From Naegleria gruberi (taxonomy: Eukaryota): a stretch of DNA of 64,000 nt. The notes below the pieces were generated by a model. That model was given only the letters and a program-made list of their open reading frames with translations, had not been told where the DNA came from and ran no database searches. The stretch is taken from the NCBI GenBank assembly GCA_000004985.1, contig GG738850.1. One strand, written 5' to 3'. Shown here in pieces: positions 7,925 to 61,746 of this stretch (the stretch's first letter is position 1; the number at the start of each line of letters is the position of its first letter). The position numbers and the translations under genes were made by a program.

Positions 7925-10900
7925 ATTTCAATCTCAATGCCTTCTCAATATTCAAAGAAAGTCATCTGCTTCTTTAAAAAGACTAAAGTTAGTATTACAC
8001 CTGAAAATATTGGAACTGCACTTATTCATTTTGAAGTGTTGGAATCACCTCTAGAAACACTTTCACTTATTTCCAACAAATTGTTCTTACCAATTTTAAA
8101 AAATAGTGTAGAACAAACATCAGCATCCGACCAAGAGGATGAAGATAAAGTCTCCCGTGATGTTGTTACCTATTTCCAAAAATTCATAGCTTCTACCTAT
8201 GTTACATCAGGACAAGTTGAAGGAAAGACACTATTGCCAATTCCACCAGATGATGTTATTCAAGAAACTTCATCCGAAAATTCGGATCAAGATAAGGATA
8301 TGATCCACACACTCGAAACAGCAGTAGTAAATTGGGCAAATCAAATCAAGGAAGTTTTAAACAAGGATCCAGAATCATTATTTGTACCAAATTATAATCC
8401 TGGTCCTCTAGATGAAATGAATTTTTGGAATTCAAAATATCTTGACTTGGAATCTGTAGCCAAACAATTAGCTGGTGAAAAGGTTACTAAAGTAATTGAA
8501 ATTTTGAAGGAAAATCAAAGTACATATATTCCATCCTTTTTAAAGATGGTCGAAGAAGTTGAAATTAGAAAACATGAAGCCTTTGAAAATCACAGATTTT
8601 TAAAACCTCTCCGTAAATATTTCGAAAGTGTAAATTTAAAGAGTGACAATCATGCAGAATATTCAGAATTACCAAATGTCTTTAGAAGTATTTTCCATTT
8701 AATTTTCATGATTTGGAAAACATCTACAACCTATAACAAGAGCGAACGTCTTGTTGTTCTTGTAAGAGAATTGTGTAATGATCTTATTGATCACTCTAGA
8801 GAATATATTGGTGGTAGAGAAATTTTCAATATGGAATTCCCAGATGCTGTTGAAAAATTTGAAAATACTCTCTCAACCTGTGGTTTGGTTAAAAAGTATT
8901 ACTTTGCTTACAAGTTAAAGGTAGAACAAGAGTGTCCAACAAATCAATGGAGAGTTCCTCCTGCTTCTCTCTTCCACAGACTTGATCACTTTTTGGAAAG
9001 ATGTAGAGATATTCTTAATATTTTTAATCAAGGTAGATTATTCGGTAAATTGGCAACACTCCAAATTGGTGGTACTAAGGGTGATTCACTCAGTAGAGAA
9101 GTTAAGGATATTTATGTACATTTCAGTGAAGAAATTGCCAAGTTTAAGGAAATTCAATATGATGCATTGGTAGTTGAAGAACAAAAGTTTGAAGAAGATT
9201 TCTATCATTTTAAGAATCAAATTAAGGAATTTGAAAAGAAAATTGGTTCTATCATTTCTAAGAGTTTTGAAGATTGTAGTACTATTCATGCTGGTGTAAA
9301 GGTTATTGAAAGTTTTGAAGGTTTACTTGATCGTGAGGCTGTTCAACAAGAAATTGTCAAAAAGCAAGGTGATTTATTACAAACCTATAGAAAAGAATTG
9401 AAGAGAGTTCAACAAACATTTACAGAATCAAAGACTAGTCCAATTATTTTCCATAACATGCCTCCAGTAACAGGAGCTATTCAATGGGCTGAATCTTTAT
9501 TGGAAAGAATTAATGGACCAATGAATAGATTAATTTCTTTGAGTAAGACCATCTTTGATAACTCTGAAGGAAAGGAAACTGTAAAACTCCATTCAAACAT
9601 TGTTGGAAAGATTAAACAATACCAACAACAAAAGTATGCTGAATGGGCCAAATCAGTTGGTGAAATTTCCGAAACTAAACTCAATGAAATGTTATTGAAG
9701 AGAACTGATGATGGAATGGTTATTGTAAATTTTGATCCTGCCCTTGTTAAACTTTTGAGAGAAGTAAATTATCTCCAAAAGATTAATACTCTCCATGAAG
9801 GAGAACCAGCATGGTCCATTCCACAAGAAGCTATTGATCTCTTTTCCAAGAATGAAAAATATAGAACTCAAACTGGTAGTTTGGAATATATTGTAAATAT
9901 GTATAACATTGTCCAAGGTTCTCTTACTCCAGTTGAAAGACCTTTATTCCAAACACAAATCCAAAAGATTGATGGTATTCTTGAAAGAGCTTTGAATAGT
10001 CTCAGTTGGAAGAATGATGTTGAAATTGATTCATTCTTATCTGAAGCCATGAATTCTGTCAAATTGGCCAGTACAACTTTATCAATTATCAAGAAGAATA
10101 CTGGAGAAATTGAAAAGGCTTTAATGAAATGGGAAAAGAACCCAATGTTCCAAAGAAAGGAAACTAGAACTTTGACAATGAAGGAGCTCGACGGAAGAAA
10201 TAAGGAAATGAAGGTTACATATGAAAAGATGGTTAAAAAGACAGGTGAACTCATTGTTGCTAAGCTTTCAGACTGTTTAGAAGTTTTGAAAGGAGGTAAA
10301 CAAAAATCTTCGGAAGAACAACTTCCAGAAGAACTAGGTTGTATCGGAGTTGATGAAAGTGCTGAGCCATGGAAGAATTTTGTCAAGCATATTAACGATA
10401 TTGTTGTAGATGGTATTTGTAAATCAGTTATTGCTTCTGTAAGAGCTCTCATGGATCAAATGAATGTTGAATATTTACTCAAGACTGAACAAAGTCCATT
10501 CCTTGAAATTTCTCTTAACCTTGTAAAGAAACCAAATAGTGAAGTGCACTTTGCTACTTTCACTCCTAGCTTGGATGAAAAGGGTGAAAATTCATTTGTA
10601 CATGTTGTTGATTCATGGATTAATGATTTTACAACAGTATCAGCTTCGATACCTAGATTGGATTCATCTTCTGGTGATTACATTAAGGAAGTTAAATCTA
10701 ATACTGATGTCATTTCTACCATTTCTCAAATTCATGAAAGTATCAAGACTGTTACAGTCGAATGTAACAAATTTGCTGAGCAATTTATTGCTCAAAAGGC
10801 TATTTATGAGACTGACCAAAAGGAATTCTTTGATGAATTCTTAGAAGTTAACTTCCCTCATGGCTCTCATGGTAAATCTCATCATGTTGAATTGCCAAAG

Positions 10901-13900
10901 TTTGATGAACAAATCAAAAAGTATCACAACATTCATGAACAAATCAAAGAACTTACTGCTTGTGATAATGCTGGTTGGTTGAGAGTCGATGCTAAACCAA
11001 TCAAGCAAGAATTACTCAAGATTTGTACCTCTTGGGAAAAGCTCTTCTCTAACTTCTTGGTACAAAACGTTTCTGAAAGATTGAACGATATTTATCAATT
11101 CATGAATACTGTTGAAAGTGGTATTGATAAAGAAGTTACTGATGGTGATATTACAACTCTCAGAGAAGTTATCAGATATATCAGAGATATTAAATCTGAA
11201 ACAGAGAGCGAAAATGGTATCTTCCAACCTCTTCAAGAAATTGTAGTTTTGCTTTCTCAATACGGAATTGAACTTGCTCCAAATCTTGTTCATACACTAG
11301 AACAAGCTCCAGTTAAATGGGATGGCCTCTATAAGAGATCATTGGTCAGAAGAACAGAACTTAGTGACTTGCAAGATAAGGAATCTCAAAAGGTTAAGGA
11401 ACAAGGTTTACAATTTGGTAAGAGGGTTTTGAAATTCCAAGAAGAATTCAGAGATATGGCTGCTTTCTTCTACAAGTCGGGTTCTCAAGATGCTTATAAA
11501 TCAATTGATAAGTGGCAAGTACTTTTGGTGGATATGGAAAAGGAAGCAACAAAGTTGAGAGAATTGCAAGACTTGTTTGAAATTACAGTAAGCGAATATA
11601 ATGCCCTCAAGACTTGTCGTGAAGAAGTTATGCTGCTCAAGTCTTTGTGGGATATCATTTCTCATATCTTGTCATTGTTCAAGGATTGGATGAAGACTTC
11701 CTTCAAGAAGGTAGATGTTGACGCACTCGTTGAAGAATCAAAGAAACTTAAAAAGACTATTCAAAACTTTAATACCAAGGCAAGAGCATGGGACAGTTAT
11801 TCAGGACTTAACAATGCTGTTAATAACATGCTTACCTCACTTCCTCTTGTTCAAGATTTGAGAAATCCTGCAATGAGAAGAAGACATTGGGATGAATTGC
11901 TCGAAGAAACTCACAAGAAGGGTGCTATTGATCCTGATGATAACTTTAATTTGGATCAATTGCTAGATCTTGGTTTGCACAGTTATGTAGATACAGTTCA
12001 AACTATTGTTGATAAGGCCAGCAAGGAATTAATTATTGAAAAGGCCCTCACAAAGGTTGAAAGTGTATGGTCTACACTCAATTTTGACTTTGGCTATGAT
12101 GGTGAATTGAAGTGTTCAATTATGGGAGCAGTAGAAGATATTGTTGAAATTCTCCAAGACAATCAAGTTCAATTGCAAAATATGTCCACTATGAAATATG
12201 TTGAATTCTTTATAGAATCATTGACCAAGTGGCAAATTGCTCTCTCCACAATTGATAGTATTATTACTGAATGGGTTGGTGTTCAAAAGAAGTGGCAAAA
12301 CCTTTATCCAATCTTTATGATGTCAAAGGATATCAAGGAAAAGTTGCACGAAGATGCTGTTCGTTTCGCTGAAGCCGATACTGAATGGAGAAACTTTATG
12401 GAAGTTGCTAAAGCTGTTCCAAAAATTGTTGAAGCTTGTACTGAACCAACTATTCGTACCAAGTTAGATACAAGTAAGGACGTTTTAGAAATCCTTCAAC
12501 ACATTGAAGAAAAGCTTGAATTGTGTCAAAAATCCTTGTCTGAATATCTTGAAACTAAGTGTAAAGCTTTCCCAAGATTCTATTTCATCAAAGCTGGTGA
12601 CGTTATTGATATTTTATCAAAGGGTTCATTCCCAAAGCTTGTCATGAAACACATGTCAAAGATTGTAGAAGCTGTTGAAACCTTAACTTTTGATGAAAAT
12701 AGTGATCTTACTAATGGTATGATTAGTAAGGAAGATGAAATCATTACCTTCCCAGATAAGTATGAATGTAAAGGACCTGTTGAAGATTGGCTCAATGGAG
12801 TTTTGAATACTATTGTTAGTTCATTGACTCATACCTTAGGTGATGCTCATGCCGCCTACGTTGAACAACAAAGAGATCAATGGGTATTCCAATTCCCTGC
12901 TCAAATTGTCATTGTTGCTTCTCGTGTTTGGTTCACAAGTGAAGTTAATTCTGCCTTTGAAAGACAAGAAGAAGGTAACAAGAATGCCTTGAAGGATTAT
13001 TACAATCAATTGAAAGATCAATTGGCTAAATTAACAACACTTGTTCAAGGTGAATTAACTCCAGGAGACAGAAAGAAGATTATTACCTTGATTACTGTCG
13101 ATGTCCACAATAGAGATATTGTTTTGAAACTTATTGAAGAAAAGGCAGAAAGCTCTCAGGTATTTACCTGGCAATCACAACTCAGATACAGTTGGGATGA
13201 TACAAAGGGTTGTACTATTAATATTGCTGATGCTGAATTTAAATATGGTTATGAATATATTGGTAACTGTGGTTGTTTGGTTATTACACCACTTACTGAC
13301 AGATGTTATATTACATTGACACAATCACTCAGATTGATTATGGGTGGTGCTCCAGCTGGTCCTGCTGGTACTGGTAAAACAGAAACAACTAAAGATTTGG
13401 GTAGAGCACTTGGTATTCAAGTCTACGTCTTTAACTGTACTGAACAAATGAATCCAGCTTCTCTTGGTAATATTTTCAAGGGTTTGTCAATGACTGGTAC
13501 ATGGGGTTGTTTCGACGAATTCAATCGTATTAGAGTTGGTGTCTTGTCTGTCGTTGCTACTCAATTCAAGTCTATTCTTGATGCTATCAAGGCTCAAAAG
13601 AAGGAATTTTTGTTTGAACAAGAAACTATTTCCCTCATTCCAACTTGTGGTGTCTTTATTACCATGAATCCTGGTTATAAGGGTCGTACTGAATTGCCAG
13701 AAAATCTTAAAGCATTGTTTAGACCATGTGCTATGATTGTTCCTGACTTTATGAATATTTGCGAAATCATGTTGGCTTCTGAAGGTTTTATCAATGCAAA
13801 GGAATTGGCTAAGAAATTCGTTACCTTGTATAGATTGAACAAGGAATTGCTCTCAAAACAAGATCACTACGATTGGGGTCTCCGTGCCGTTAAATCTGTA

Positions 13901-16900
13901 TTAGTTATTGCTGGTGGTTTGAAGAGAGCTGAACCTCAAGTTTCTGAAGACAGAATTCTCATGAGAGCTCTCAGAGATACCAATTTGGCCAAACTTTCAA
14001 GAGATGATATTGAAATCTTCAGAGGTTTAATTAGAGATTTGTTCCCAAAGATTGAAATTGAAGCAAAGAGTGATCCAGAATTGGTCAAGGCTGTCAAACA
14101 AGCAACTGAAGAAAAAAGATTACAAACAGGTGAAAATGATATTTTCATTGGAAAGGTTGTACAATTTAAGGAATTGCTTGATGTTAGACACTCTGTCTTT
14201 GTTTTAGGTCCTGCAGGTTCTGGTAAATCATGTGTTTGGAAAACTTTATCTAAGGCCTTTGAAATTCAAGGTCGTAGAACTTGGGCACACGTACTTAATC
14301 CAAAATCTGTTACCAGTGGTGAACTTTATGGTTATACTCACCCAGTTTCAAAGGATTGGAAGGATGGTCTGCTCTCCAATACTATGAGAGAAATGTACGA
14401 AACCAAGACACCATTACCAAAATGGATTGTTTTGGATGGTGATATCGATGCTGAATGGATTGAATCTATGAATACAGTCATGGACGACAATAAGGTTTTG
14501 ACATTGGCAAACAATGAAAGAATTCCTTTGAGTCCAAGTATGAGAATGCTTTTCGAAATTGATCACTTGAGAAATGCTACTCCTGCAACTGTATCAAGAG
14601 CCGGTATCTTGTTCTTGAACGAAACTGATATTGGTTGGAATCCATTCAAGGAAAGTTGGATTGAAACAAGATCTGTTGAAAAGGAAAAGCAAAATCTTGA
14701 TCGTTTGTTCTATACTTATGCACCACACATTTTGTTCTGGTTGAAGAAACACAATCACATTATTCCAAGACAAGATATCAGCATGATTCAAACATTGTGC
14801 TACTTGTTAGAAGGTTTGATTACACCAGAATCTTGTCCACCAGGTTGTTCTCATGAAATTTATGAATATTACTTTGCTTTTGCTTGTATTTGGGCATTTG
14901 GTGGTGCTTTGGAAGATGATGAAAGAGTTTTATTCAATGCCATGTTCAAGAAAGACTTCCCTCAAGTTAAATTCCCTGAAAATGCAACTGTATTTGATTA
15001 CTTTGTTGTTACTGAAGGTGAAACTGTTAGACTTGAACCTTGGGCTACAAAAGTTAAGGAATATAATCATGACTTTGAATTGCCATTCAATGAAATTGTC
15101 GTCTCTACAGCTGATACAGCACGTTTAACTTATTTGATGGACTTGTTGGCTGACAGAAGAAGACCTGTATTACTTGTTGGTACTGCTGGTACTGGTAAGA
15201 CAACCATTGTTAAGGGTAAATTGAGAAGTCTTGATGAAGAAACTCTCTACACTACAATTAACTTTAACAGTAATACTGATGCTGAATCATTCCAAAATAT
15301 TCTTGAACAATCTATTACCAAGAAGGCTGGTAAAATGTACGGTCCACCAGGTAGAAAGAAGCTTATTTACTTTATTGACGATCTTAACATGCCTAATCCT
15401 GACAAATATGGTACTCAATCTGCTGTTGAATTCCTCCGTCAACATATGGACTATGGATTTTGGTATGATAGAAATAATATGGGAGTCAAGGAAGTTACCA
15501 ATGTTCAATACCTTGCCGCTATGAATCCAAAGGCTGGTTCTTTCACAGTTACTGGTAGATTACAAAGACATTTTGGTATGTTTGCTTGTACATTCCCTGC
15601 AGATGCTGATTTGAAGACAATTTATTCTCAAATCATTTCTGCTCACGTTGAATCATTCGATAGAAGAGTTCAAACAATTAGTACTAAATTGGTTGATGCT
15701 ACAATCAAACTTCATAAGGAAGTTGCCAAGTTCTTCTTGCCAACTGCTGTCAAGTTCCACTACCAATTCAATCTCAGAGAAATTTCAAACATTTTCCAAG
15801 GTTTGTGCCGTTCTACTAAGGAACACTACAGTGATCCTGTTCACATGATTAGATTGTGGATGCACGAAGCTTTCAGAGTTTTCTCTGACAGAATGACAGA
15901 ACAAGATGATGTTAACAAATTCTCTGCTATGGCTACAAAGATTAGTAAGGATGTTCTCGATTGTGAAATTCAAGATGGGCAAAGCTTGTTGTTCAGCTCT
16001 TTCGTTGTTGAAAGTGATAACGGTACTGGTGTCTATTGTGAAGCCAATGATTTTAACAAGTTGAAGCTAGTTTTAGAAAAGAAGCTCGAAGAATACAATT
16101 CATCAAGATCAATTATGAATCTAGAATTGTTTAAGCAAGCTATTTGGCACGTTTGTAGAATTAGTCGTATTTTGTCAAATCCAAGAGGTAATGCCTTGCT
16201 GGTTGGTGTAGGTGGTAGTGGTAAACAAAGTTTGGCTAAATTGGCATCATTCATTAATAATTATGAAATTTCTCAAATCACTGTCACACCTTCCTACAAG
16301 ATTATCGATTTTAAGAAGGATCTTTTGGAATTGTACAAGAAATCTGGTGAAAAGGATATGAAGATTTCATTCATTCTTACAGATTCTCAAATCTTTGACC
16401 AAAAGCAATTGGTCTTTATTAACGACTTTTTGTCTTCTGGTTTCATTCCAGAATTGTTCACTCCTGATGATGTTGAAAAGTCAATTCAAGCTGTTCAACC
16501 TGCAGTTAAATATGCTGGTAAGGATCACAATGATAAGAAGGTTTGTTGGGACTTCTTCTTGGAAAAGGTCAAGAAGAATTTGCACTTGGTTCTTTGCTTC
16601 TCACCTGTTGGTGAACAATTGCGTGTTTGGTGCAGAAAATTCCCAGCCATTATGAACTGCTCTGTTATCGATTGGTTCCACGAATGGCCAAGAGATGCTT
16701 TAATTTCTGTTGCCTATAGATTCTTGACTGATGCTGATATGAATTTGGGTGATGACGAAATGATTAAGAATATTTCAGAACATATGGCCTTTGCTCACGA
16801 ATCTGTCTCAATGGCTTGTAAGAGCTATCAACACATTGAAAGAAGATACAATTATACCACACCAAAGAGTTTCTTGGAACTTATTGAAGTATACAAGACA

Positions 16901-19900
16901 TTGTTGGCCAAGAAGAGAGAAGAATTGAACGGAACAATTGAACGTTTGAGTAATGGTTTGACCAAGATTAATGAATCTGAAGAAAAGGTCAAGGAATTAT
17001 CAACTGTACTTGCTCAAGAAGCTATCATTGTCGAAGAAAAGAAGAGAGCAACAGAAGAACTCTTGGCTAAGGTTACAAAAGAAAATACCTTCTTAGCCAG
17101 TCAGCAAAAGATTGTCGAAGAGGAAGAAGTTAAACAAAACAAGGTTGTTGATGAAGTTAATGCCCTTGCTAAGGTCTGTACAGATGAATTGAAACAAGCT
17201 GAACCTCTTATTGAAAAGGCTAAGAAGTCATTGGAAGTTTTGAATGTTAAAGATTTCCAAGAATTGAAGTCATTTACCAATCCTCCAGCATTTGTCGACG
17301 TTGTTTTGTCTGCTGTCATGATTTTGAAGGCACAAAGAGGTGTACCAAAGAATGTTGTTTGGGCTGAATCCAAGAAGATGATGAATAATCCAAACCAATT
17401 CATGGTTGAATTAGTTTCTTACAATGCTGAATCCATTCCAAAGATTCCACAAGAAAATATTGATGCTTTGAAGAATAGCAAATATCTTCAACATCCAAAC
17501 TTTGTTCCATCCTTCATTGAAAGCAAGTCAACAGCTGCTGCTGGTTTGTGCGATTGGGTTATTAACGTTGTTGCTTTCTATGATTTGGACAAACAAATTG
17601 AACCAAAGAGACAAAAGTTGTCCCAAGCTATGGAAGAAAAGGAAAAGAACGAATCTCACTTGAAGAAGATTAGTGACAAATTGAACACACTCAGAAAGGC
17701 AAAGGAGCAAGCTGAAACTGAACACAATAATGCTGCTCAAGAATTGGTTAGAATTGAAAAGCAAAGAAAGAAGACTGAAGACAAATTGAATCTTGCTCAC
17801 AGATTGGTCAATGGTTTGTCTGATGAAAAGATCAGATGGGCTGAATCTATCAAGGATTTAAGAGAAAGAGAAAAGACTCTCGTTGGTGATGTATTGTTGG
17901 CCGCTGCTTTCCTTTCATATGTCGGTCCTTTCACCAAAAAGTATAGAAATATGCTTATTGAAGAAAAGTGGATTATCGATCTCAAAGAAAGAAAGATTCC
18001 AACATCAGAAGGTATTGATCCTCTCTTTGGTGTACTTGCTGAAGAAGCTCAAGTTGCCCAATGGAACAACGAAGGTTTGCCATCAGATAGAGTTTCAGTT
18101 GAAAATGGTTCCATTGTTACCAATTGTAAACGTTGGCCATTGTTGATTGATCCACAATTGCAAGGTGTTAAATGGATTAAGAATATGGAAAGTAAGAATA
18201 ACTTGCAAGTCATTCAATTGACAAAGAAGGGATATTTGGAAACTCTTATCCACGCTATTATGAATGGTTATCCTGTTTTGATCGAAAATATTGGAGAAAA
18301 TATTGATCCAATTCTTGATCCATTGCTTGCACAAAGTTATACAAGAAAGGGTAACTCTGTATCTATCAAGCTTGGTAATCGTGAAGTTGATTTTGATCCT
18401 AAATTCAGACTTTACCTTCAAACCAAATTACCAAATCCTCACTATAGACCTGAAATTGTTGCTCAAACAACCTTGTTGAACTTTATGGTCACTGAACAAG
18501 GTTTGGATGATCAATTGCTTGGTACTGTTGTCAATAAGGAAAGACCTGACTTGGAAGAATTGAGACTTTCATATTTGAGACAACTTAGACAATTCAAGAT
18601 TGAACTTAAGGGGTGTGAAGATGCTCTTAGAAATGAATTGTCAAATGCCAAGGGTGATTATTTGGAAAATCACAGACTTATTGATAACTTGGAAGCAACC
18701 AAGAAGAAATCTCAACAAATCAACGTCAGTCTTAAAGAAATTCTTGAAAATAACAAGATGATTGATGAAAGTCGTTCAGTTTATAGAACCGTTTCTACAA
18801 GAGGTTCCATGTTGTATTTCCTTATTGACCAATTGTCAAAGATTGACCACATGTATCAATATTCTCTTGAAGCCTTTATGGTTGTATTTAACAAGGCTCT
18901 TGAAAAGGCTGAACCAGCTGATAATGTAGATAAGAGAGTTGAAAACATTGTCGATAGTATTACAGAAACATTGTTCAGTTACGTTTCTAGAGGTCTCTTT
19001 GAAAGACACAAGCTCATCTTCTCAATGATGTTGTGTATTGAAATTATGAGAAAGAAGGGAGAAATTGAACCAAACCAAATTGACTTTTTACTTAGAGCTC
19101 CTAGAGTTGATGGTGTTGAAAGAAAGGAAACTGTTATTGGTTGGTGTTCTGAATTGAGTTGGGCCTATGTACAAGCACTTACTGCTATTGAAGGTACTAG
19201 TCCAGCATTCTCACTCTTACCAGATGATATGGCTGGTTCTTGGAGAAGATGGAAAGAATGGACTGAATTTGAAAAGCCAGAAGAAAAACCATTACCATTA
19301 GAATGGAAGAACTTGTTACCATTCCAAAAGTTGTTGATTATCAGATGTCTCAGACCTGACAGATTAACTATGGCTGTAACAAACTTTGTAAAGGAGAGAA
19401 TTGGTGAGAAATACGTTAAGGATATTCCTGTTGACCTTGAAGTTTCATATGGTGATGCAGGTCCTACTACACCATTATTCTTTATCCTTTCTCCTGGTGT
19501 TGACCCTGTAAAGGCTGTTGAAAGAATTGGTGAAAAGTTTGGTTTTACAGAATCTGCAGGTAAATTCAAGAACGTTTCTTTGGGTGAAGGTCAAACAGTT
19601 GTTGCCGAAAATGCCCTTCAACATGCTTTCAGAACTGGTGGTTGGGTCATGTTGAACAATCTTCACTTGACTCCTGAATGGTTAGGTGCTTTGGAAAAGA
19701 AATTGGATCAATATGCTGAACAATATGGTAGACAAGAAATGAGAGAAAAGAAGAGAAGAGAAAAGGAAGGATTAAAGAGATCATCCTCTGCTGCTGCTTC
19801 CAGGAGATTAGAAGAGGAAGAACAAGTTGAAGGTGAAAAGGGAGAAGAACCTGAAGTTGGTATTTCTATTGATCCAACCTCCCCACAAGAAGATAAGAAA

Positions 19901-21472
19901 GCAGAAATTCCAGAGGTTGAAGAAGATTCTGAAGAATCAGATGAAGAAGAAGATTTGGGACATCCAGACTTTAGAGTATTCCTTTCAGCTGAACCTTCTA
20001 ACCAAATTCCAATTGGTATCTTGCAAAGATCTATTAAGCTAACTAACGAACCTCCAAGTGGTTTGAGAGCCAACTTGTTCAGATCCCTTATGCAATTTGA
20101 TGATAATATTTGGGAAGGAAGTTCCAAACAAACAGAATTCAAGGGAATCTTGTTCTCACTCTGTTTCTTCCATGCTTGTATTGTTGAAAGAAAGAAGTTC
20201 GGTCCTCAAGGTTGGAACAGAAACTATCCATTTAACCTTGGTGATTTAATTACCTGTATTCACGTCTTGAACAATTACTTGGAAGATAGACCAAAGGTTC
20301 CATGGGAAGATTTGAGATACGTTTTTGGTGAAATTATGTATGGTGGCCACATTACTGATGACTGGGATAGAAAACTCTGTAAGACCTATTTGGAGAAGTT
20401 TATTAGACCTGATGTTGTTGATCAACTTGAGTTGTGTCCAGAATTCCTTTCACCTCCAACCAACTTGACTTATAAGGGATATTTGGAATATGTTGAAAAG
20501 GTTTTGCCACCTGAAAGTCCAGTTGCCTTTGGTTTGCATCCTAACGCTGAAATTGGTTTCAGAACCACTCAAGGTGAAAATATGTTCAACATGATTGCAG
20601 AAATGCAACCTCGTTCAACTTCTGCTGGTGATGGTATGTCCTACCAAGATAAGGTTCAAGCAGGTATTCGTAGAATTTTGGACACTTTACCAGAACCATT
20701 TAACCTTGAAGAAATTGCTGATAGACTTGATGAAGAAAGAACTCCATACCAAAACTCATTCTATCAAGAATGTGAATACATGAATAGATTATTGGTAGAA
20801 TTAGATAGATCACTCAAGGAATTGCAAAGTGGTTTGGATGGTTTGTTGACAATTACTGAAAAGATGACCATTCTCCAAGATTGTATCTATCAAAATAAGG
20901 TTCCAGAAACTTGGTCATCTCTTGCTTATCCATCTCCAAGAAAATTGGACTCATGGTTTGATGACTTGATGCAAAGATATGCACAATTATTGAATTGGAC
21001 AGGAGACTTGCAAACACCAAAGGTTGTTTGGATTTCTGGATTGTTCAATCCTCAATCATTCTTGACTGCCATTATGCAAACTATTGCCAGACAAAAGACT
21101 TGGGCTCTAGATGAAATGACTCTAGTTGCTGAAGTAACAAAGAAGTATGCTGTAGATGAAATTGAACAATCTGCCAGAGAAGGTGCCTATGTTACTGGTA
21201 TGTTCTTGGAAGGTGCTGGTTGGGATCCAAAGAAGAATCACTTGATCGACTCCAAATTGAAGGATTTGCATCCAAGAATGCCAATTATCCACATTAAGGC
21301 TGTTCAAAATGAAAAGTCTGATCCAAACAGCTTCTACGATTGTCCTGTTTACAGAACACCTGATAGAGGTCCTGATTATATTTTCACATGCAAGTTAAAG
21401 ACTCGTGATCATCCAAGTAAATGGATTATGGGTGGTGTTGCTATGATTTTGGATCAAGTGGATACATTGTAA
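7925..21472 (+). CDS. axonemal outer-arm dynein heavy chain (DNAH5/8-like), main exon (~4.5k aa, uninterrupted)
   Basis: Four P-loops typical of axonemal heavy chains: GPAGTGKTETTKDLGRALG...CFDEFNRI (AAA1), GPAGSGKS (AAA2), GTAGTGKTT (AAA3) and GVGGSGKQSLAKLASFI (AAA4, axonemal signature). N-terminal VICFFKKTKVSITPENIGTALIHFEVL aligns to the DNAH5 tail. Stalk/MTBD and C-terminal domains are all in one frame. The track ORF starts at 7937 (internal Met); the frame is open upstream to 7829. Confidence 0.93.
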   Translation: MSISMPSQYSKKVICFFKKTKVSITPENIGTALIHFEVLESPLETLSLISNKLFLPILKNSVEQTSASDQEDEDKVSRDVVTYFQKFIASTYVTSGQVEGKTLLPIPPDDVIQETSSENSDQDKDMIHTLETAVVNWANQIKEVLNKDPESLFVPNYNPGPLDEMNFWNSKYLDLESVAKQLAGEKVTKVIEILKENQSTYIPSFLKMVEEVEIRKHEAFENHRFLKPLRKYFESVNLKSDNHAEYSELPNVFRSIFHLIFMIWKTSTTYNKSERLVVLVRELCNDLIDHSREYIGGREIFNMEFPDAVEKFENTLSTCGLVKKYYFAYKLKVEQECPTNQWRVPPASLFHRLDHFLERCRDILNIFNQGRLFGKLATLQIGGTKGDSLSREVKDIYVHFSEEIAKFKEIQYDALVVEEQKFEEDFYHFKNQIKEFEKKIGSIISKSFEDCSTIHAGVKVIESFEGLLDREAVQQEIVKKQGDLLQTYRKELKRVQQTFTESKTSPIIFHNMPPVTGAIQWAESLLERINGPMNRLISLSKTIFDNSEGKETVKLHSNIVGKIKQYQQQKYAEWAKSVGEISETKLNEMLLKRTDDGMVIVNFDPALVKLLREVNYLQKINTLHEGEPAWSIPQEAIDLFSKNEKYRTQTGSLEYIVNMYNIVQGSLTPVERPLFQTQIQKIDGILERALNSLSWKNDVEIDSFLSEAMNSVKLASTTLSIIKKNTGEIEKALMKWEKNPMFQRKETRTLTMKELDGRNKEMKVTYEKMVKKTGELIVAKLSDCLEVLKGGKQKSSEEQLPEELGCIGVDESAEPWKNFVKHINDIVVDGICKSVIASVRALMDQMNVEYLLKTEQSPFLEISLNLVKKPNSEVHFATFTPSLDEKGENSFVHVVDSWINDFTTVSASIPRLDSSSGDYIKEVKSNTDVISTISQIHESIKTVTVECNKFAEQFIAQKAIYETDQKEFFDEFLEVNFPHGSHGKSHHVELPKFDEQIKKYHNIHEQIKELTACDNAGWLRVDAKPIKQELLKICTSWEKLFSNFLVQNVSERLNDIYQFMNTVESGIDKEVTDGDITTLREVIRYIRDIKSETESENGIFQPLQEIVVLLSQYGIELAPNLVHTLEQAPVKWDGLYKRSLVRRTELSDLQDKESQKVKEQGLQFGKRVLKFQEEFRDMAAFFYKSGSQDAYKSIDKWQVLLVDMEKEATKLRELQDLFEITVSEYNALKTCREEVMLLKSLWDIISHILSLFKDWMKTSFKKVDVDALVEESKKLKKTIQNFNTKARAWDSYSGLNNAVNNMLTSLPLVQDLRNPAMRRRHWDELLEETHKKGAIDPDDNFNLDQLLDLGLHSYVDTVQTIVDKASKELIIEKALTKVESVWSTLNFDFGYDGELKCSIMGAVEDIVEILQDNQVQLQNMSTMKYVEFFIESLTKWQIALSTIDSIITEWVGVQKKWQNLYPIFMMSKDIKEKLHEDAVRFAEADTEWRNFMEVAKAVPKIVEACTEPTIRTKLDTSKDVLEILQHIEEKLELCQKSLSEYLETKCKAFPRFYFIKAGDVIDILSKGSFPKLVMKHMSKIVEAVETLTFDENSDLTNGMISKEDEIITFPDKYECKGPVEDWLNGVLNTIVSSLTHTLGDAHAAYVEQQRDQWVFQFPAQIVIVASRVWFTSEVNSAFERQEEGNKNALKDYYNQLKDQLAKLTTLVQGELTPGDRKKIITLITVDVHNRDIVLKLIEEKAESSQVFTWQSQLRYSWDDTKGCTINIADAEFKYGYEYIGNCGCLVITPLTDRCYITLTQSLRLIMGGAPAGPAGTGKTETTKDLGRALGIQVYVFNCTEQMNPASLGNIFKGLSMTGTWGCFDEFNRIRVGVLSVVATQFKSILDAIKAQKKEFLFEQETISLIPTCGVFITMNPGYKGRTELPENLKALFRPCAMIVPDFMNICEIMLASEGFINAKELAKKFVTLYRLNKELLSKQDHYDWGLRAVKSVLVIAGGLKRAEPQVSEDRILMRALRDTNLAKLSRDDIEIFRGLIRDLFPKIEIEAKSDPELVKAVKQATEEKRLQTGENDIFIGKVVQFKELLDVRHSVFVLGPAGSGKSCVWKTLSKAFEIQGRRTWAHVLNPKSVTSGELYGYTHPVSKDWKDGLLSNTMREMYETKTPLPKWIVLDGDIDAEWIESMNTVMDDNKVLTLANNERIPLSPSMRMLFEIDHLRNATPATVSRAGILFLNETDIGWNPFKESWIETRSVEKEKQNLDRLFYTYAPHILFWLKKHNHIIPRQDISMIQTLCYLLEGLITPESCPPGCSHEIYEYYFAFACIWAFGGALEDDERVLFNAMFKKDFPQVKFPENATVFDYFVVTEGETVRLEPWATKVKEYNHDFELPFNEIVVSTADTARLTYLMDLLADRRRPVLLVGTAGTGKTTIVKGKLRSLDEETLYTTINFNSNTDAESFQNILEQSITKKAGKMYGPPGRKKLIYFIDDLNMPNPDKYGTQSAVEFLRQHMDYGFWYDRNNMGVKEVTNVQYLAAMNPKAGSFTVTGRLQRHFGMFACTFPADADLKTIYSQIISAHVESFDRRVQTISTKLVDATIKLHKEVAKFFLPTAVKFHYQFNLREISNIFQGLCRSTKEHYSDPVHMIRLWMHEAFRVFSDRMTEQDDVNKFSAMATKISKDVLDCEIQDGQSLLFSSFVVESDNGTGVYCEANDFNKLKLVLEKKLEEYNSSRSIMNLELFKQAIWHVCRISRILSNPRGNALLVGVGGSGKQSLAKLASFINNYEISQITVTPSYKIIDFKKDLLELYKKSGEKDMKISFILTDSQIFDQKQLVFINDFLSSGFIPELFTPDDVEKSIQAVQPAVKYAGKDHNDKKVCWDFFLEKVKKNLHLVLCFSPVGEQLRVWCRKFPAIMNCSVIDWFHEWPRDALISVAYRFLTDADMNLGDDEMIKNISEHMAFAHESVSMACKSYQHIERRYNYTTPKSFLELIEVYKTLLAKKREELNGTIERLSNGLTKINESEEKVKELSTVLAQEAIIVEEKKRATEELLAKVTKENTFLASQQKIVEEEEVKQNKVVDEVNALAKVCTDELKQAEPLIEKAKKSLEVLNVKDFQELKSFTNPPAFVDVVLSAVMILKAQRGVPKNVVWAESKKMMNNPNQFMVELVSYNAESIPKIPQENIDALKNSKYLQHPNFVPSFIESKSTAAAGLCDWVINVVAFYDLDKQIEPKRQKLSQAMEEKEKNESHLKKISDKLNTLRKAKEQAETEHNNAAQELVRIEKQRKKTEDKLNLAHRLVNGLSDEKIRWAESIKDLREREKTLVGDVLLAAAFLSYVGPFTKKYRNMLIEEKWIIDLKERKIPTSEGIDPLFGVLAEEAQVAQWNNEGLPSDRVSVENGSIVTNCKRWPLLIDPQLQGVKWIKNMESKNNLQVIQLTKKGYLETLIHAIMNGYPVLIENIGENIDPILDPLLAQSYTRKGNSVSIKLGNREVDFDPKFRLYLQTKLPNPHYRPEIVAQTTLLNFMVTEQGLDDQLLGTVVNKERPDLEELRLSYLRQLRQFKIELKGCEDALRNELSNAKGDYLENHRLIDNLEATKKKSQQINVSLKEILENNKMIDESRSVYRTVSTRGSMLYFLIDQLSKIDHMYQYSLEAFMVVFNKALEKAEPADNVDKRVENIVDSITETLFSYVSRGLFERHKLIFSMMLCIEIMRKKGEIEPNQIDFLLRAPRVDGVERKETVIGWCSELSWAYVQALTAIEGTSPAFSLLPDDMAGSWRRWKEWTEFEKPEEKPLPLEWKNLLPFQKLLIIRCLRPDRLTMAVTNFVKERIGEKYVKDIPVDLEVSYGDAGPTTPLFFILSPGVDPVKAVERIGEKFGFTESAGKFKNVSLGEGQTVVAENALQHAFRTGGWVMLNNLHLTPEWLGALEKKLDQYAEQYGRQEMREKKRREKEGLKRSSSAAASRRLEEEEQVEGEKGEEPEVGISIDPTSPQEDKKAEIPEVEEDSEESDEEEDLGHPDFRVFLSAEPSNQIPIGILQRSIKLTNEPPSGLRANLFRSLMQFDDNIWEGSSKQTEFKGILFSLCFFHACIVERKKFGPQGWNRNYPFNLGDLITCIHVLNNYLEDRPKVPWEDLRYVFGEIMYGGHITDDWDRKLCKTYLEKFIRPDVVDQLELCPEFLSPPTNLTYKGYLEYVEKVLPPESPVAFGLHPNAEIGFRTTQGENMFNMIAEMQPRSTSAGDGMSYQDKVQAGIRRILDTLPEPFNLEEIADRLDEERTPYQNSFYQECEYMNRLLVELDRSLKELQSGLDGLLTITEKMTILQDCIYQNKVPETWSSLAYPSPRKLDSWFDDLMQRYAQLLNWTGDLQTPKVVWISGLFNPQSFLTAIMQTIARQKTWALDEMTLVAEVTKKYAVDEIEQSAREGAYVTGMFLEGAGWDPKKNHLIDSKLKDLHPRMPIIHIKAVQNEKSDPNSFYDCPVYRTPDRGPDYIFTCKLKTRDHPSKWIMGGVAMILDQVDTL

Positions 21473-21596
21473 ATAAACAATTTATTATTTAATTAAAAAC
21501 GTTTTTCTAATTTTTGAGGAGTTTTTATGTTCTAAACTTTGAATACTTATGGTATATACGAGTAGCCGAATTTAAATTATTAAGATTAAAAAGGTG

Positions 21597-21667
21597 TAGG
21601 AAGACAGGGAATCGAACCCTGATCTTAGGAACCACAATCCCATGTTCTACCACTGAACTATCTCCCT
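21597..21667 (-). tRNA. tRNA-His (anticodon GTG)
   Basis: 71-nt cloverleaf read by hand: acceptor AGGGAGA/TCTTCCT with one G-U pair, D arm GTTC-AGTGGTA-GAAC, anticodon arm TGGGA-TTGTGGT-TCCTA (U33, GTG, G37), T arm CAGGG-TTCGATT-CCCTG, discriminator A. Followed by a T-run (CACCTTTTT). Identical to the copy at 48613..48683. Confidence 0.85.
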
Positions 21668-31770: not shown

Positions 31771-31843
31771 CTCCCCCTGGTGGGCTCGAACCACCGACCT
31801 GCAGATTAACAGTCTGACGCTCTACCGACTGAGCTAAGGGGGA
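31771..31843 (-). tRNA. tRNA-Asn (anticodon GTT)
   Basis: 73-nt cloverleaf: acceptor TCCCCCT/AGGGGGA, D arm GCTC-AGTCGGTA-GAGC, anticodon arm TCAGA-CTGTTAA-TCTGC (U33, GTT, A37), variable AGGTC, T arm GGTGG-TTCGAGC-CCACC (the Asn-typical T arm), discriminator G. T-run downstream on the gene strand (TTGCTTTTGG). Confidence 0.8.
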
Positions 31844-35671: not shown

Positions 35672-36040
35672 AATATTCTGCACCTCAGAGGGGATATTCC
35701 TAAAAAGGATAAGCAAGATATTGAACTACGATTGGAAACCATGTACGATGAATATCTTGAAAATCCGAATCCAGATGCACGTTTGTCACTATTTGGTAAA
35801 ATTGATAAAACTCCAGAATCAAAGAAAAGAAAAACAAAGAATCAGATTTCTAAAAAGGGTGATAAGAATGATAAGAATGAAAAATCAGAGAAACAAAACG
35901 AATCTCAAACCACCAACAAGAAAGATCCAAAACTCGAAGTACCAGATGGAGCAACCAGTTTAGGCGATTTACTTGGAGATGAAAAATTGGATTTCTCATT
36001 CGATGAGGATGACGAAGAAGATTATGAAGAAGATGAATAA
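35672..36040 (+). CDS. SEC6: Sec6 exon 5 (acidic C-terminus, stop at 36038-36040)
   Basis: Acceptor AATAG at 35667-35671 is the only nearby AG that restores the frame of track ORF 35732..36040. The alternative CAG at 35686-35688 gives an immediate stop. Five exons total 2994 nt, 998 codons. Confidence 0.55.
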   Translation, partial: NILHLRGDIPKKDKQDIELRLETMYDEYLENPNPDARLSLFGKIDKTPESKKRKTKNQISKKGDKNDKNEKSEKQNESQTTNKKDPKLEVPDGATSLGDLLGDEKLDFSFDEDDEEDYEEDE

Positions 36041-36861
36041 ACTATTTGGAAATTTGTATTTTGTGAATATTCAATCATTTCGAATTTGTAAAGTGAGCAT
36101 GCTCAACTATATTGAGCCAGCTCCTTCTCAAATTGTTGACATTCTGCATTCTTCGTAATATCAGTTTCTTAAAATCCTTTCGACAGTTCACACTCATAGT
36201 GTTGAGTTAACAAAGGAGCGAAATTTATCCTACTCACTCCAATTTATACCAAACCAAGGAAAAGTATAAAGATTTTTTTGCATTATCTTTTAAACTCTAC
36301 CCAATCAACTACATTCCCACAACATTACAACCACATATCTCAATAGTTACACCATTTTCAATTAAAGTGTTCCATTTCCAAACATTTCCATTCCGCACTT
36401 TCATGTTTGCCATTATTGACCATTCATGCCGCTGCGCAAAAAATTCAAAACCTAACAATTTAGGCGGGAAACCAAAAAACCCTTTGGAAATGAGAGTTTT
36501 TTATGCTACAAGCAATGAAACAGCTCTGATGCTGTTGAAGCAACAAACACAATGCTCTCACAGTTGCTCGAACCTGAAAAAAAAACGAACAAGTCCCTCC
36601 ACCACCTACAACCTTTATCGCAGCACGGCAGCCTCACTTGTAGTAGCCGGCCGGATAGAGAGTTTGATTTTCTTGTATTTGTGTGGACAAAGTCTTGCTA
36701 CTTTAAAAATCGACAATAGTAACGGAAAGGAGAATAATCAAGTAGATAGGATTAGTAGTTGTTACGGAATAACCGATCATCTTGTCATCTTTTGTATAAA
36801 AACTATACATTGCTGATTTGAAGCATTTTACATTGATTCTTTCTCCCTTTCGAATAGATTA

Positions 36862-48612: not shown

Positions 48613-48683
48613 AGGGAGATAGTTCAGTGGTAGAACATGGGATTGTGGTTCCTAAGATCAGGGTTCGATTCCCTGTCTTCCTA
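48613..48683 (+). tRNA. tRNA-His (anticodon GTG), second identical copy
   Basis: 71/71 identical to complement(21597..21667). Followed by CC + TTTTTT. Confidence 0.85.
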
Positions 48684-48685
48684 CA

Positions 48686-51259: not shown

Positions 51260-51311
51260 GTAATAATTATTTCAATGGTTGATGAAACAAGGGAAAAGAA
51301 TCAATCTACAG

Positions 51312-51985
51312 TGATGAATTCTAATGTTGTACTTAATATTCCTATTAATCTTGTAATTCATCCATTGGTTTCGAAACCTTCCTATATTATTAAGGAGGCT
51401 AGCATTGGGGTTCAGGTTCAATACTTTGAGAGATTCTTGCATGCTCACTTTGCATCAATTCTGTTTAAGAAGTTTAATGAATCGATGGATTTGTTTACAA
51501 AGGATCAATTGGTAATTCATGGAAAACATATTGAAGCTCCAAGAAAAACTCTATCCTATTCAGATTCGAATATTGTATACTCTTATTCTGGAATGCAGAG
51601 ATCGTCAATACCTTGGTTTCCTGAATTGCTCAAATTGAAAACCTTGATTCAAGAAAAGACAGGTGAGGTTTTTAATTATGCTCTTGTAAATGTGTACGAT
51701 AATGGCAATGACTATATTGGCTGGCATTCAGATAAAACAAAAGATTTGGTCGAAAATTCTTCCATAGTTTCCTTGACACTTGGAGAAACAAGACCATTCC
51801 AATTTAAACCATCAGAAGGCAAACAGAAAAATTCTGACAAATCTATCATTACAAAATATCTGCCAAATGGTTCAATGATAATTATGAATTGGAATACACA
51901 GTTTTACTACAAACATTGTCTACCAAAGAGAAAAAACATTTCAAAACAGAGAATTAACATTACTTTTAGACATGTGAAGGTGTAG
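51312..51985 (+). CDS. alpha-ketoglutarate/Fe(II)-dependent dioxygenase AlkB homolog (ALKBH2-like), catalytic domain
   Basis: Collinear match to ALKBH2: VQYFERFLHAHF..., PWFPELLKLKTLIQEKTGEVFNYALVNVYDNGNDYIGWHSDKTKDL, SIVSLTLGETRPFQFKP, LPNGSMIIMNWNTQFYYKHCLPKR, RINITFRHV. HxD...H iron triad present. Stand-alone ATG alternative at 51275 (MVDETREK). Confidence 0.85.
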
Positions 51986-52118: not shown

Positions 52119-52679
52119 TTATTCATTTCCACATTTTTCATTACAATTACATTGAGTACTGGAATATGTTGAGGTTTGATATAAATAGTAAATTCCACTT
52201 CCCAATCCAACAGTAACTGCAACTGTTCCCAATACTGGTGCACTCATAATTGCACCTGTAGCTCCAATCACTTGTAAACCGGAAACCAATGATCCAGCAG
52301 CGACTCCTTAACCATTTGCAACAGCACTCATCGCCATTAGTTTAGCACCAACGCTGCCAGCAGAAATTCCTGCTTTGGTAAACCCAGCCCATCCCACAAT
52401 AGTTGGAAGAAATGAAAGAGTGGCTGCAGAGACAATTGTGGTTCCAGCTGCTGCACTAAGAAGAAGATTTGATTTCCTTGTTGTTTTGAATTCACAAGAG
52501 GTACTCCTTTTAAAATTCATTCTGTCAGAATATTTTGGGTGAATTGTGATTTCTGTGCTAGATTCCTCTTGTTTTACTTCTGTCTTTGATGAATCACCAG
52601 TAGATTCTACTACTATTTCCTCTTCTTGTTTGATTGTTTCAAATTCTCTTGGTTTAGTGCTGAACCACCTTCTGAACAA
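52119..52679 (-). pseudogene. IFI6/IFI27 (ISG12, Ifi-6-16)-family gene interrupted by an in-frame TAA at a conserved Gly codon
   Basis: Track ORF 52308..52679 ends ...GFTKAGISAGSVGAKLMAMSAVANG*. The same frame continues GVAAGSLVSGLQVIGATGAIMSAPVLGTVAVTVGLG... to a stop near 52119. Human IFI6 reads ...AAGSIAAKMMSAAAIANGGGVAAGSLVATLQS..., so the TAA occupies a Gly position (ANG-G-GVAAGS). Nonsense mutation, assembly error or read-through. Confidence 0.5.
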
Positions 52680-52934
52680 GAATCTCTAAATATCAAACAG
52701 AGAATTACTTTCGGAATGATCGGTTTCAGCACTTGCTTGATGAACGAAAATTCCTCCGAGAAGGAAAAATAACAGTAAAATTACGAGAATTCGCATTTGC
52801 ATTTTTTTAAAAGAATTTTTAAATTGAAATTCCAAATGTTTACAATAACTCATGAAACGTTGTTCGTTTCATGGATAGGAATAGGATCTTTTTAAATAAA
52901 ATGTCTATTTACAAAGTGGTATGAATTTGAATGT

Positions 52935-54280
52935 TTAGAATTGAAAGGAGGCACCCTGAAGGAACATTTGTAACATGTCTTCATTGGAAAGGAATGGATC
53001 AAAATTATCTGAATCGCAATTAGTTGTTGGACTCTCTAAACAACTTGAATTGTTGGTTGGTGTGGTTTTCAAAGTATTTTCCTGTCTCTTGTGGAGAATT
53101 TCCTCAATTTCTGTTATTATCGAATTGTAATCCACTTCCACTCTCTTGTATTTCTTTCCCATTGATTTGAGAGCCGTATAATCCTTTTCTAGAATTTGAT
53201 AATAATCAATTGGAACTATGGCATTATCAAGAGTAACTCCTGTTAATAAATTCTGACGGAGACCCTGTTCAATTTTGTTAACAATTCTCAAATGAACTCT
53301 GGCAGCCATAGCAATGTAGGTCAGTACAACCACTGAAAAGTAGGAAAACAAGTCTTGTTCTGTGAGGAGTGTGATCTTTAAAGCAGCTTCCTCTACTGTT
53401 GGACAGTCGCCATAACCTGCTTTGGTTAAGAGACTGATTTTCACACCATTGGAAATGATGGATTTAAATAATTCAGTTGCTCTTGCCTTAGTTTCATCTG
53501 ATTCTTCATCCTTATCTTTGCAAACCATATGTTTTCTAATAAAAGTTCCTACAACCTCGAATAATCTCAAATGTTCATGATAATTTTCTGGTGTAATTGG
53601 CTGTTGGAGGGCTTTTGCAATCTCTGGTGGAAGCTTCTCAGAGGTGAAATATTCAAAAATCTTTGGAAAGTCCTTAACCATCATGCTTAAACAAAATTCA
53701 TTATTTGATAGGAAAATATCCATCATGAATAGTCCCTTCTTGAATGCCAATTCATTTTGATTCAATTCTTCATCCTTTTTTCCATCAACGTAACATCTTG
53801 CAGCTCCAATATAGAATTTACACAAACTTCTTTTCCCAGATCCAGATTCATAAGAGGCCAGTAACGAATAGGTGCATGCAACATTGAAATTATCAACAAC
53901 AGTGTCAAAAAATGGTGCCAACAAATCTCTAGATTTCTTAATAGAGGCCTCTGCTGTAGAAATTCCAAGTCTTTGCTCAACCAATCCCTTAATAGCATAA
54001 AAGAGGGCATGAATTTCCTTCTTGTCACTTCTTTGTAAAATGTGATCTTCCAACATTTTCCTATCAATTGTTCCATTTTCATGAAGAGAGTAGAAAAATT
54101 CAATCACTTCCTTTTTAGAGAGTTTTTGAGGAGTTTTCTGGTTTAACACATTTGAGGAAGGTTTTGATTTCTTTGTTTTTTGCTGTTGATTATTCTTGTG
54201 ATATCTCATTCTCTTTGGAGTTTTATATTCACATGTAATACCCTTCTCTGAACATCTATCACATATTGGTAATACCTTTG
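52935..54280 (-). CDS. Zn(II)2Cys6 (Gal4-type) zinc-cluster transcription factor, exon 2 (second half of zinc cluster plus fungal-type TF middle region)
   Basis: Frame open upstream of track Met (54209) to acceptor AACAG at 54281-54285. Encodes (T)KVLPICDRCSEKGITCEYKTPKR..., then a roughly 400-aa alpha-helical region typical of fungal zinc-cluster factors. Confidence 0.8.
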
Positions 54281-59736: not shown

Positions 59737-60104
59737 ACCACATTGGACTGTTCCAGGTTGGTTTCGAAGAAGGCCACGCAGCAACTTCCTTTCTGAGAAA
59801 GATTCCCTTGATCTCAACATGGGATAGAGTGGACAAACAATTAAGTACATGCTCAAAATCCCTTATAACTCCGTTACTTAATATCCACACACCAATATCG
59901 TCATCACCAACAAACTTGTTTTGTGACTCTTATTTCTCTTCCTATTCTCCATTCTCCATTCTCCATTGTCTTAGACATACAAAAACACACCAAGTAAGAT
60001 CAATGAAATTCTTCCTTCGAACATGAAGTGTGAACATTTTATATTACTGTAGTTGTAAATTATTTACAGTTGGGATCAAATTGATACAATCTTTTTACAA
60101 AAAA

Positions 60105-60911
60105 ATGCCTCGATTGATTGGTTGGATGAAACAATCACCTAGTAGGAATAACCAACAAGAAGCTGCGGATGATATTTCACAAGTTGTTTCAAAGTCGATA
60201 TCGGAAAGTTTAATTTCCACATCGGAAACAGTAGTGGAAAGTACTACCATCAAGAAATCTAATTCTACATGTATTATTGTCAAGACATCTTCTGATCTTT
60301 TTCTTGATGAAATTTCAATTCATATTGCTGAATATTTGGATTTGAAAAATTTAAATTCTTTTGCTCGAGTTGACTCGAATTTATTGAAATTATTATTTAA
60401 TAGACAAGTTAATGAAACAAAACCTATCAATTATGTATTGGACGAAAATTCAGATTTTGAAAGGATTCAATAATTAATTTGGAAACCTCTTGTTTTTCGT
60501 CATTTTCCCAATTTTGGAAAACAGTTAAATGTAAAAAATTGGATTCATGTTTTACAACGTAGATTAAGGCACATTAAAATCCACAAAAACAAATCATCTC
60601 ACTCATTCCAAATTCCCACTCCATCCTTTGCCAAAACAGTTGAAGATCAGAAATTTATTGAAAATTGTGAATGGATTTACAAATGCCCGCTGTCATTCAA
60701 ATCTCTAAAAGCTGATCCACAAGAATTAAATCTTTCTCATTGTAATGTTTGTAATAGAGAGGTGCATTTGGTTCATAACATGATTGAAATGAAATCCAAC
60801 TTAATGAAAGGAAATTGTGTTGCTTACTCAACTAAACCAATGATACCAGTAATGTTGGGATATATTGCACCACCTATTCCTCCACCATTACCACCACCTC
60901 CACCTGGTTGA
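60105..60911 (+). pseudogene. F-box protein paralog A, interrupted by an in-frame TAA (60471-60473); frame stays open and homologous to paralog B through 60911
   Basis: ATG at 60105 (MPRLIGWMKQ...). F-box-like LFLDEISIHIAEYLDLKNLNSFARVDSNLLKLLFNR. ...DFERIQ*LIWKPLVFRHFPNFGKQLNVKNWIHVLQRR...CEWIYKCPL...GNCVAYS...PPPLPPPPPG is collinear with paralog B (...DFERIQTLIWKPLVFHYFPKFGEKLNVKNYLHVLRRR...). The TAA aligns to the Thr codon ACT in B. Confidence 0.45.
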
Positions 60912-61131
60912 AAATTCCATCATGTAATTTTTCATGTTCTGTAAAGTTCTTCCTTTTTTATTATAGTAATTCTTGTTGATAAGTGACAGGTTGAGTAACA
61001 TTTACTATCCATCAAGATTTTGAAAGAAAATCGAACATACTACTGAATCAGATAAAAAAAGTGTTGGTATTAGAGAGCCACTTTCTAATATCTTTCTTGA
61101 GGAGATTGCTGTTTATGGGCAGTTTTTAGAG

Positions 61132-61746
61132 TTGAAGGATTTGAATAGTTTCGCTCAGGCAGATTCGAATACATTTAACCTATTTTTTAATAGAAATTTG
61201 AAGGATAAACAATCAAAGAATGTTGAATATGAAACAGATGAAATAATGGATTTTGAAAGAATTCAAACTTTGATTTGGAAACCTTTAGTTTTTCATTATT
61301 TCCCCAAATTTGGTGAAAAGCTGAATGTTAAAAATTATTTACACGTTTTGAGGAGAAGAATTCAATACATAAACCTTGGGAAACCACAACACATTAAAAT
61401 TGAAACTCCACAATTCACCAAAACAGTAGAAGATCAGCAATACATTGAAAATTGTGAATGGATTTACAAATGTCCACTGGAATATGACACTTTGAACACA
61501 ATGTTCTCTCACAATGATAGGAAGTTTTGCGAAGTATGTCAGAAGGATGTTTATCTAGTCGATGATATGTCAAATTTCAAGACACAAATCACTCAAGGAA
61601 ATTGTGTTGCTTACTCACCAAATCCAATCAAGAATATTCCAAGGCTTGTTGGTTCCATGGCTCCTCCAAGACCATTTATTATTCCTAATAATATCAACAC
61701 GACTCTTGTACCACCACCCCAAATCAATAGAATTTCCAAGAAATAA
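61132..61746 (+). CDS. F-box protein paralog B (C-terminal Cys-rich CEWIYKCPL...FCEVCQ...GNCVAYS and Pro-rich tail); 5' end unresolved
   Basis: Track ORF starts with TTG. The frame is open from 61024 and already encodes the F-box (PLSNIFLEEIAVYGQFLELKDLNSFAQADSN) with no in-frame ATG, so an upstream exon or start is missing from my model. Confidence 0.6.
   Translation: MKDLNSFAQADSNTFNLFFNRNLKDKQSKNVEYETDEIMDFERIQTLIWKPLVFHYFPKFGEKLNVKNYLHVLRRRIQYINLGKPQHIKIETPQFTKTVEDQQYIENCEWIYKCPLEYDTLNTMFSHNDRKFCEVCQKDVYLVDDMSNFKTQITQGNCVAYSPNPIKNIPRLVGSMAPPRPFIIPNNINTTLVPPPQINRISKK

Follow-up and report, generated by a model that had tools for sequence, protein, structure and literature searches.

Gene content of the window and structure of the ISG12-like gene

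We analysed a 64-kb window (here, the whole stretch of 64,000 nucleotides) from a 707,703-bp scaffold of the Naegleria gruberi NEG-M reference. The window, AT-rich at ~35% GC, is densely packed with genes, and its intronless ORFs reach 4,511 codons; the one of that length, at 7937-21472 on the plus strand, is a single ORF for a complete dynein heavy chain and uses none of TAA, TAG or TGA as a sense codon. The ORF at 2781-6545 is an exact match to the N. gruberi protein EFC48696.1 (NAEGRDRAFT_56967), that at 51275-51985 is an exact match to EFC48552.1 (NAEGRDRAFT_63194), a 2OG-Fe(II) oxygenase, and positions 52935-54209 form the main exon of NAEGRDRAFT_63195. Between NAEGRDRAFT_63194 and NAEGRDRAFT_63195, on the minus strand, lies an ISG12-like gene with two in-frame stop codons, whose features are given below together with the corresponding sequence of L001, a near-identical metagenome contig.

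52119-52802, minus strand: whole ISG12/IFI6-like gene remnant, 227 sense-codon positions from the ATG at 52802-52800 to the terminator, with two in-frame stops inside
52728-52802, minus strand: signal-peptide-like N-terminus MQMRILVILLLFFLLGGIFVHQASA, codons 1-25 (hydropathy segment 1-26)
52686-52688, minus strand: first premature stop, TAG, codon 39; TGG (Trp) in L001
52352-52524, minus strand: 173-nt segment present in the window and deleted in L001, from the alignment to L001
52308-52310, minus strand: second premature stop, TAA, codon 165; GGA (Gly) in L001 and Gly in 11 of 11 family members
52206-52436, minus strand: Ifi-6-16 (PF06140) domain with Gly/Ala-rich hydrophobic helices, from the Pfam match and hydropathy
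52119-52121, minus strand: natural terminator, TAA, from the reading frame

The first-pass annotation had placed this gene at 52119-52679, a span that covers its 3' part but is incomplete, as the frame upstream of the TTG at 52679 runs on through the TAG at 52688-52686, which had been missed, to the ATG at 52802. Both L001 and P0001, a second N. gruberi copy described below, begin with MQ(I/M)RILVILLLFF, and the preservation of the upstream frame in these two sequences indicates that the ancestral start lies at 52802. The true start of the gene is therefore the ATG at 52802 and not the TTG at 52679. A crude hydropathy scan, made with no dedicated predictor, marked residues 1-26 at the N-terminus as hydrophobic and gave further hydrophobic segments that run continuously over residues 111-207, in accord with the small multi-helix membrane proteins of the Ifi-6-16 family, which often carry a targeting or signal peptide at the N-terminus. 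By our own reading of the sequence, MQMRILVILLLFFLLGGIFVHQASA contains putative n, h and c regions followed by an ASA-E cleavage-like site, suggestive of a signal peptide. The ancestral gene is thus one of 227 codons, encoding a signal peptide, an acidic linker of ~70 residues, the Ifi-6-16 domain and a Cys-rich tail (QCNCNEKCGNE).

No product of the gene was recovered from the protein collection by exact-sequence look-up, either with six ORF fragments taken from the window or with eight hypothetical repaired versions of the gene. The same look-up did find the 112-aa product of L001, which served as the positive control, and the annotated 122-aa fragment of an unrelated interrupted gene in the window, gene A.

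The second stop replaces an invariant glycine of the Ifi-6-16 family

Around the second stop the minus strand reads GCA AAT GGT TAA GGA GTC GCT GCT, with the TAA at 52310-52308. The frame is open for 125 codons ahead of the TAA and for 62 codons beyond it, and the chance of finding 62 open codons past a stop is P ~0.025 at this base composition; translation bore out both the count of 62 downstream codons and the peptide quoted in the first-pass annotation. When the translation was compared with Pfam with an X at the stop, Ifi-6-16 (PF06140) matched at E = 5.7e-15 and 55.4 bits (cut-off 29.1), over residues 82-158 of the 186-aa query from 52679 and positions 4-81 of the 84-position profile. The stop (residue 124) falls inside this match, and the proposed membership of the IFI6/IFI27 (ISG12) family is supported.

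Relatives were gathered by an exhaustive HMMER search of 1.84 billion representative proteins, for which the query consisted only of the 70 residues ahead of the stop, so that the search carried no bias for the sequence after it. Eleven family members were recovered besides the truncated P0001, and when these hits were aligned at full length the column of the TAA held glycine in all eleven, within the motif ANGGGV, as expected from the earlier suggestion that the stop occupies a conserved glycine position. The window copy retains all 17 alignment-invariant columns, including those of GFT.AGI..S..AK.M and N..V..G..V..L...G, and the core motif GFT.AGI.AGS..AK.MS..A.ANGGGV.AGS.VA.LQS.GA is broken at one point only, where the stop takes the place of the central Gly of ANGGGV. 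Eight distant family loci (L002-L009) obtained by a protein-pattern scan all carry ANGGGV as well, a count biased by the inclusion of ANGGGV in one of the search patterns. Scanning of JGI metagenome contigs with a DNA pattern that spans the stop gave no match. When the C-terminal 76 residues were used in a word-based homology search, only weak vertebrate matches came back; the negatives of this tool are weak because it did not return the 112-residue product of L001, which is ~97% identical over most of its length and forms a cluster representative of its own in the collection.

A near-identical genome carries sense codons at both stops

Our sole comparison genome was L001, a 4,067-bp metagenome contig (ENA ERZ929261) retrieved via the neighbouring 424-residue protein. 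It aligns to window positions 56452-52225, ending within the ISG12-like gene at 52225, and differs by 26 substitutions in ~4,055 bases (0.64%; 99.4% identity) and a few indels. At the position of the TAG this contig has TGG (Trp) and at the position of the TAA it has GGA (Gly). Because the comparison with a related genome, which had been put forward earlier as a check, gives sense codons at both sites, the two stops appear to be young and derived in the NEG-M lineage.

We then classed every difference between the window and L001 by codon. Across three flanking coding regions (~3.6 kb) there were 16 synonymous and 2 non-synonymous changes, whereas the ISG12-like gene had 1 synonymous change and 4 that were non-synonymous or nonsense (Met/Ile, Ser/Phe, stop/Trp and stop/Gly). 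This contrast between gene and flanks is significant by Fisher's exact test (p = 0.0078) on a small sample, with five changed codons in the gene, and the density of substitutions is likewise higher in the gene (~1.5%) than in its flanks (~0.55%). The skew looks unconstrained, the pattern that would be expected of a gene freed from purifying selection. The 62 codons downstream of the TAA are identical in the window and L001 and are thus uninformative on constraint.

As assembled, the L001 copy is itself disrupted. It lacks the segment equivalent to window positions 52524-52352 (junction at L001:3940-3941), a loss of 173 nt that puts the rest out of frame and takes away the initial hydrophobic helices of the domain, leaving a product of 112 aa that ends in ...KYSDWC. 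No microhomology was seen at the deletion junction, and the deletion is carried by a single metagenome contig, where it could be an assembly artefact. If it is real, each of two strains has this locus disrupted by a lesion of its own.

The TAA at 60471-60473 lies in an unrelated gene

The first-pass annotation had paired the stop at 52308 with another in-frame TAA at 60471, said to occupy a conserved position in an unrelated gene.

60105-60911, plus strand: gene A, of an F-box-like Cys-rich family unrelated to ISG12, with an in-frame TAA at 60471-60473

This second TAA is confirmed as an in-frame stop, which has 148 open codons on one side and 145 on the other. The family of gene A is Naegleria-specific, some of its members are named F-box domain proteins, and the repaired gene A protein had no Pfam match. 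Its first 122 codons correspond to the truncated model NAEGRDRAFT_63198, which ends at the TAA, so the public reference contains the stop. Residues in the stop column vary across the 17 sequences aligned (8 Q, 4 T, 2 V, one F, one L and one E), the column lies between the invariant residues Q122 and W126, and all downstream invariant residues are kept. A tandem paralogue at 61084-61746 on the plus strand, 48% identical to gene A and with the conserved Cys, has ACT at the position of the stop.

The TAA is one transition away from CAA, which encodes Gln, the commonest residue in this column. We consider the gene A stop to be probably a separate, ordinary and recent nonsense mutation from CAA, or possibly a single-base error of the reference. 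The contexts of the stops at 52308 and 60471 differ, as do the residues replaced (Gly and Trp in the ISG12-like gene, probably Gln in gene A), and the pairing of the two stops does not point to a shared mechanism. Further candidates for same-frame stops in the window, TGA at 36814, TAG at 35961 and TGA at 60024, were rejected as one or both sides of each are not coding-like.

Alternative explanations for the in-frame stops

We considered whether the TAG, the TAA and the TAA at 60471 might be passed by programmed read-through, with a near-cognate tRNA inserted at each and full-length proteins made. Open frames and family-invariant residues do persist after the stops, and three in-frame stops in 64 kb are suggestive at first sight; however, the two in the ISG12-like gene are not kept in L001 at 99.4% identity, which fails the key criterion for such a mechanism, and read-through would be needed at two different stop codons within one gene. 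TAA is the main genuine terminator in the window and is the least leaky of the stop codons. Known leaky contexts include UGA-CUAG and UAG-CAR-YYA, and to our knowledge none of the three contexts observed here (TAA-GGA-GTC, TAG-AGA-TTC and TAA-TTA-ATT), which have no motif in common, matches a known leaky one. RNA structure in the 100 nt downstream of each of the three stops was no better than in shuffled sequences (z = -1.2, -0.9 and +1.0), and the 64-kb window contained no suppressor tRNA, its tRNA genes being the following.

21596-21667, 31771-31843 and 48613-48684: three tRNA genes, tRNA-His-GTG (two copies) and tRNA-Asn-GTT, none a suppressor

A literature search on Naegleria gruberi and read-through yielded nothing, by title or abstract, on read-through of stop codons in Naegleria, and one on Naegleria and ISG12 gave nothing useful. 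Programmed read-through, which had been offered as one of three options for this gene, is therefore very improbable, with nothing in the comparison with L001, the stop types, their contexts or the downstream structure to speak for it. We are equally doubtful of the broader proposal that, at certain genes, N. gruberi exploits or puts up with a low level of read-through at TAA and TAG, such that all three stops in the window are translated and the genes are functional. It is scarcely credible that the stop is hidden, whether by a variant genetic code or by a very small in-frame intron. TAA ends 12 of the 17 window ORFs of at least 250 codons and is absent from within their >15,000 codons, which excludes a variant code, and the sequence G|GTTAAG|GA around the stop, although superficially similar to GT...AG, offers only the 6 nt of GTTAAG as an intron, a length impossible for the spliceosome, where L001 is collinear with GGT GGA GGA.

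An error of base calling or assembly in the NEG-M reference, such that the gene is in truth intact, with GGA and TGG at the two sites, would be in keeping with the sense codons of L001 at both sites and with the finding that ORF fragments of the gene derived from the window are not found in the other data sets searched. This option, also raised in the first-pass annotation, would need three wrong bases within 380 nt with both altered codons becoming stops, and it has to contend with the neighbouring coding sequence, where 16 of 18 differences in ~3.6 kb are synonymous, the signature of real polymorphism and the opposite of what random sequencing errors there would give, and with the two missense changes in the ISG12-like gene, which also fit relaxed constraint. 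We regard it as unlikely, and the stops are probably real in the NEG-M culture. The copy might instead encode a functional short product, started at an internal ATG at 52520 and ended at the TAA, with 70 residues that cover the first half of the domain. This ATG-initiated 70-codon ORF (52520-52308) does hold the most conserved stretch, GFTKAGISAGSVGAKLMAMSAVANG, but its product would be without a signal peptide as well as the latter half of a domain that is found whole in most aligned relatives, the exceptions being a handful of short entries that break off just past the motif. The upstream frame, moreover, is kept in L001 and P0001 with an ancestral start at 52802, and we saw no sign of a promoter within the gene, so that a functional short product is decidedly improbable.

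A probable young null allele or pseudogene in the NEG-M reference

We conclude that the ISG12-like copy is probably a young null allele or pseudogene in the NEG-M reference. What favours a young nonsense pseudogene, the remaining option of the first-pass annotation and the one we adopt, is the second stop further upstream, the sense codons of L001 at both sites, the unconstrained substitutions within the gene and the apparent separate disabling deletion in L001. A change of TGG to TAG would end translation at codon 39, and a change of GGA to TAA, involving two adjacent bases, would add the second stop at codon 165, at the invariant middle Gly of ANGGGV. The latter may have arisen by one tandem mutation, or by GGA to TGA and a subsequent neutral change to TAA. 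If both stops work as ordinary terminators, no full-length protein would be made. The downstream frame is still open, and it would owe its recognisable state solely to the youth of the lesions, which is suggested by their absence from a strain that is 0.64% different. The gene thus presumably yields no full-length product and would appear to be dispensable.

Naegleria has been described as a heterozygous diploid (PMC9928731). Given this heterozygosity, an intact second allele may exist, in which case "null allele" would be the right term and "pseudogene" too strong.

The linker of the window copy and the paralogue P0001

P0001, either a paralogue or a diverged allele from N. gruberi, comes from a scaffold of 1,081 bp whose end cuts it off ahead of the domain. 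Relative to the window copy it has ~105 extra codons between SLFDI and TKPREF (P0001 residues ~39-150). The string PPSEQESPN in P0001 has equivalents on the opposite strand, PPSEQESLN in the window (plus-strand ORF 52626-52772) and PPSEQESPN in L001. Since a near-identical string is found on opposite strands, the comparison implies that the linker of the window copy has undergone a short inversion and a deletion relative to P0001. The TAG/TGG codon falls within the inverted piece of the linker.

Neither the HMMER search nor the word-based searches, of which the latter are weak, returned a Naegleria protein with an intact Ifi-6-16 domain. With the window copy disrupted and unrepresented in the protein collection, and with P0001 ending short of the domain, the Ifi-6-16 family may be missed in heterolobosean proteomes, an omission that would be relevant to tracing the deep origin of the family.

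Significance and comparison with known systems

We read the stop at 52308 not as a signal for recoding but as the mark of a gene copy that broke recently and in an ordinary way, a reading that follows from the second stop upstream and from the sense codons at both sites in L001. The finding matters little beyond annotation, but it is useful as a calibration: a very young nonsense allele looks like this, with a stop in frame at an invariant residue and a clean frame after it, and such a picture is not by itself a sign of recoding.

The gene resembles animal IFI6/IFI27 (ISG12, FAM14) in matching nearly the whole PF06140 profile and in keeping the 17 invariant columns, and differs from it in its heterolobosean amoeba host, its acidic linker of ~70 residues, its Cys-rich tail QCNCNEKCGNE and its two stops. 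We know of no interferon system in Naegleria or other heterolobosean amoebae. The signal-peptide-like N-terminus followed by a hydrophobic domain is similar to the layout of shrimp IFI6-16, which consists of a signal peptide, a TM region and the IFI6-16 domain (PMC9144789).

Programmed read-through is exemplified by viral genes of the gag-pol or TMV type and by the UGA-CUAG cases of Drosophila and mammals. All that the ISG12-like gene has in common with these is a stop in frame with homologous coding sequence beyond it; unlike them, its stop is unconserved in the nearest relative and has neither a leaky context nor significant downstream structure, and the gene contains two different stops. 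Although it departs from the typical set of pseudogenes and null alleles in its few lesions, its intact downstream frame and the possibility of an intact second allele, it is like young unitary pseudogenes and segregating null alleles in that its protein is absent from the collection, its premature stops stand against intact homologues, its non-synonymous changes are in excess over those of its neighbours, and another disabling lesion appears to be present in a related genome.
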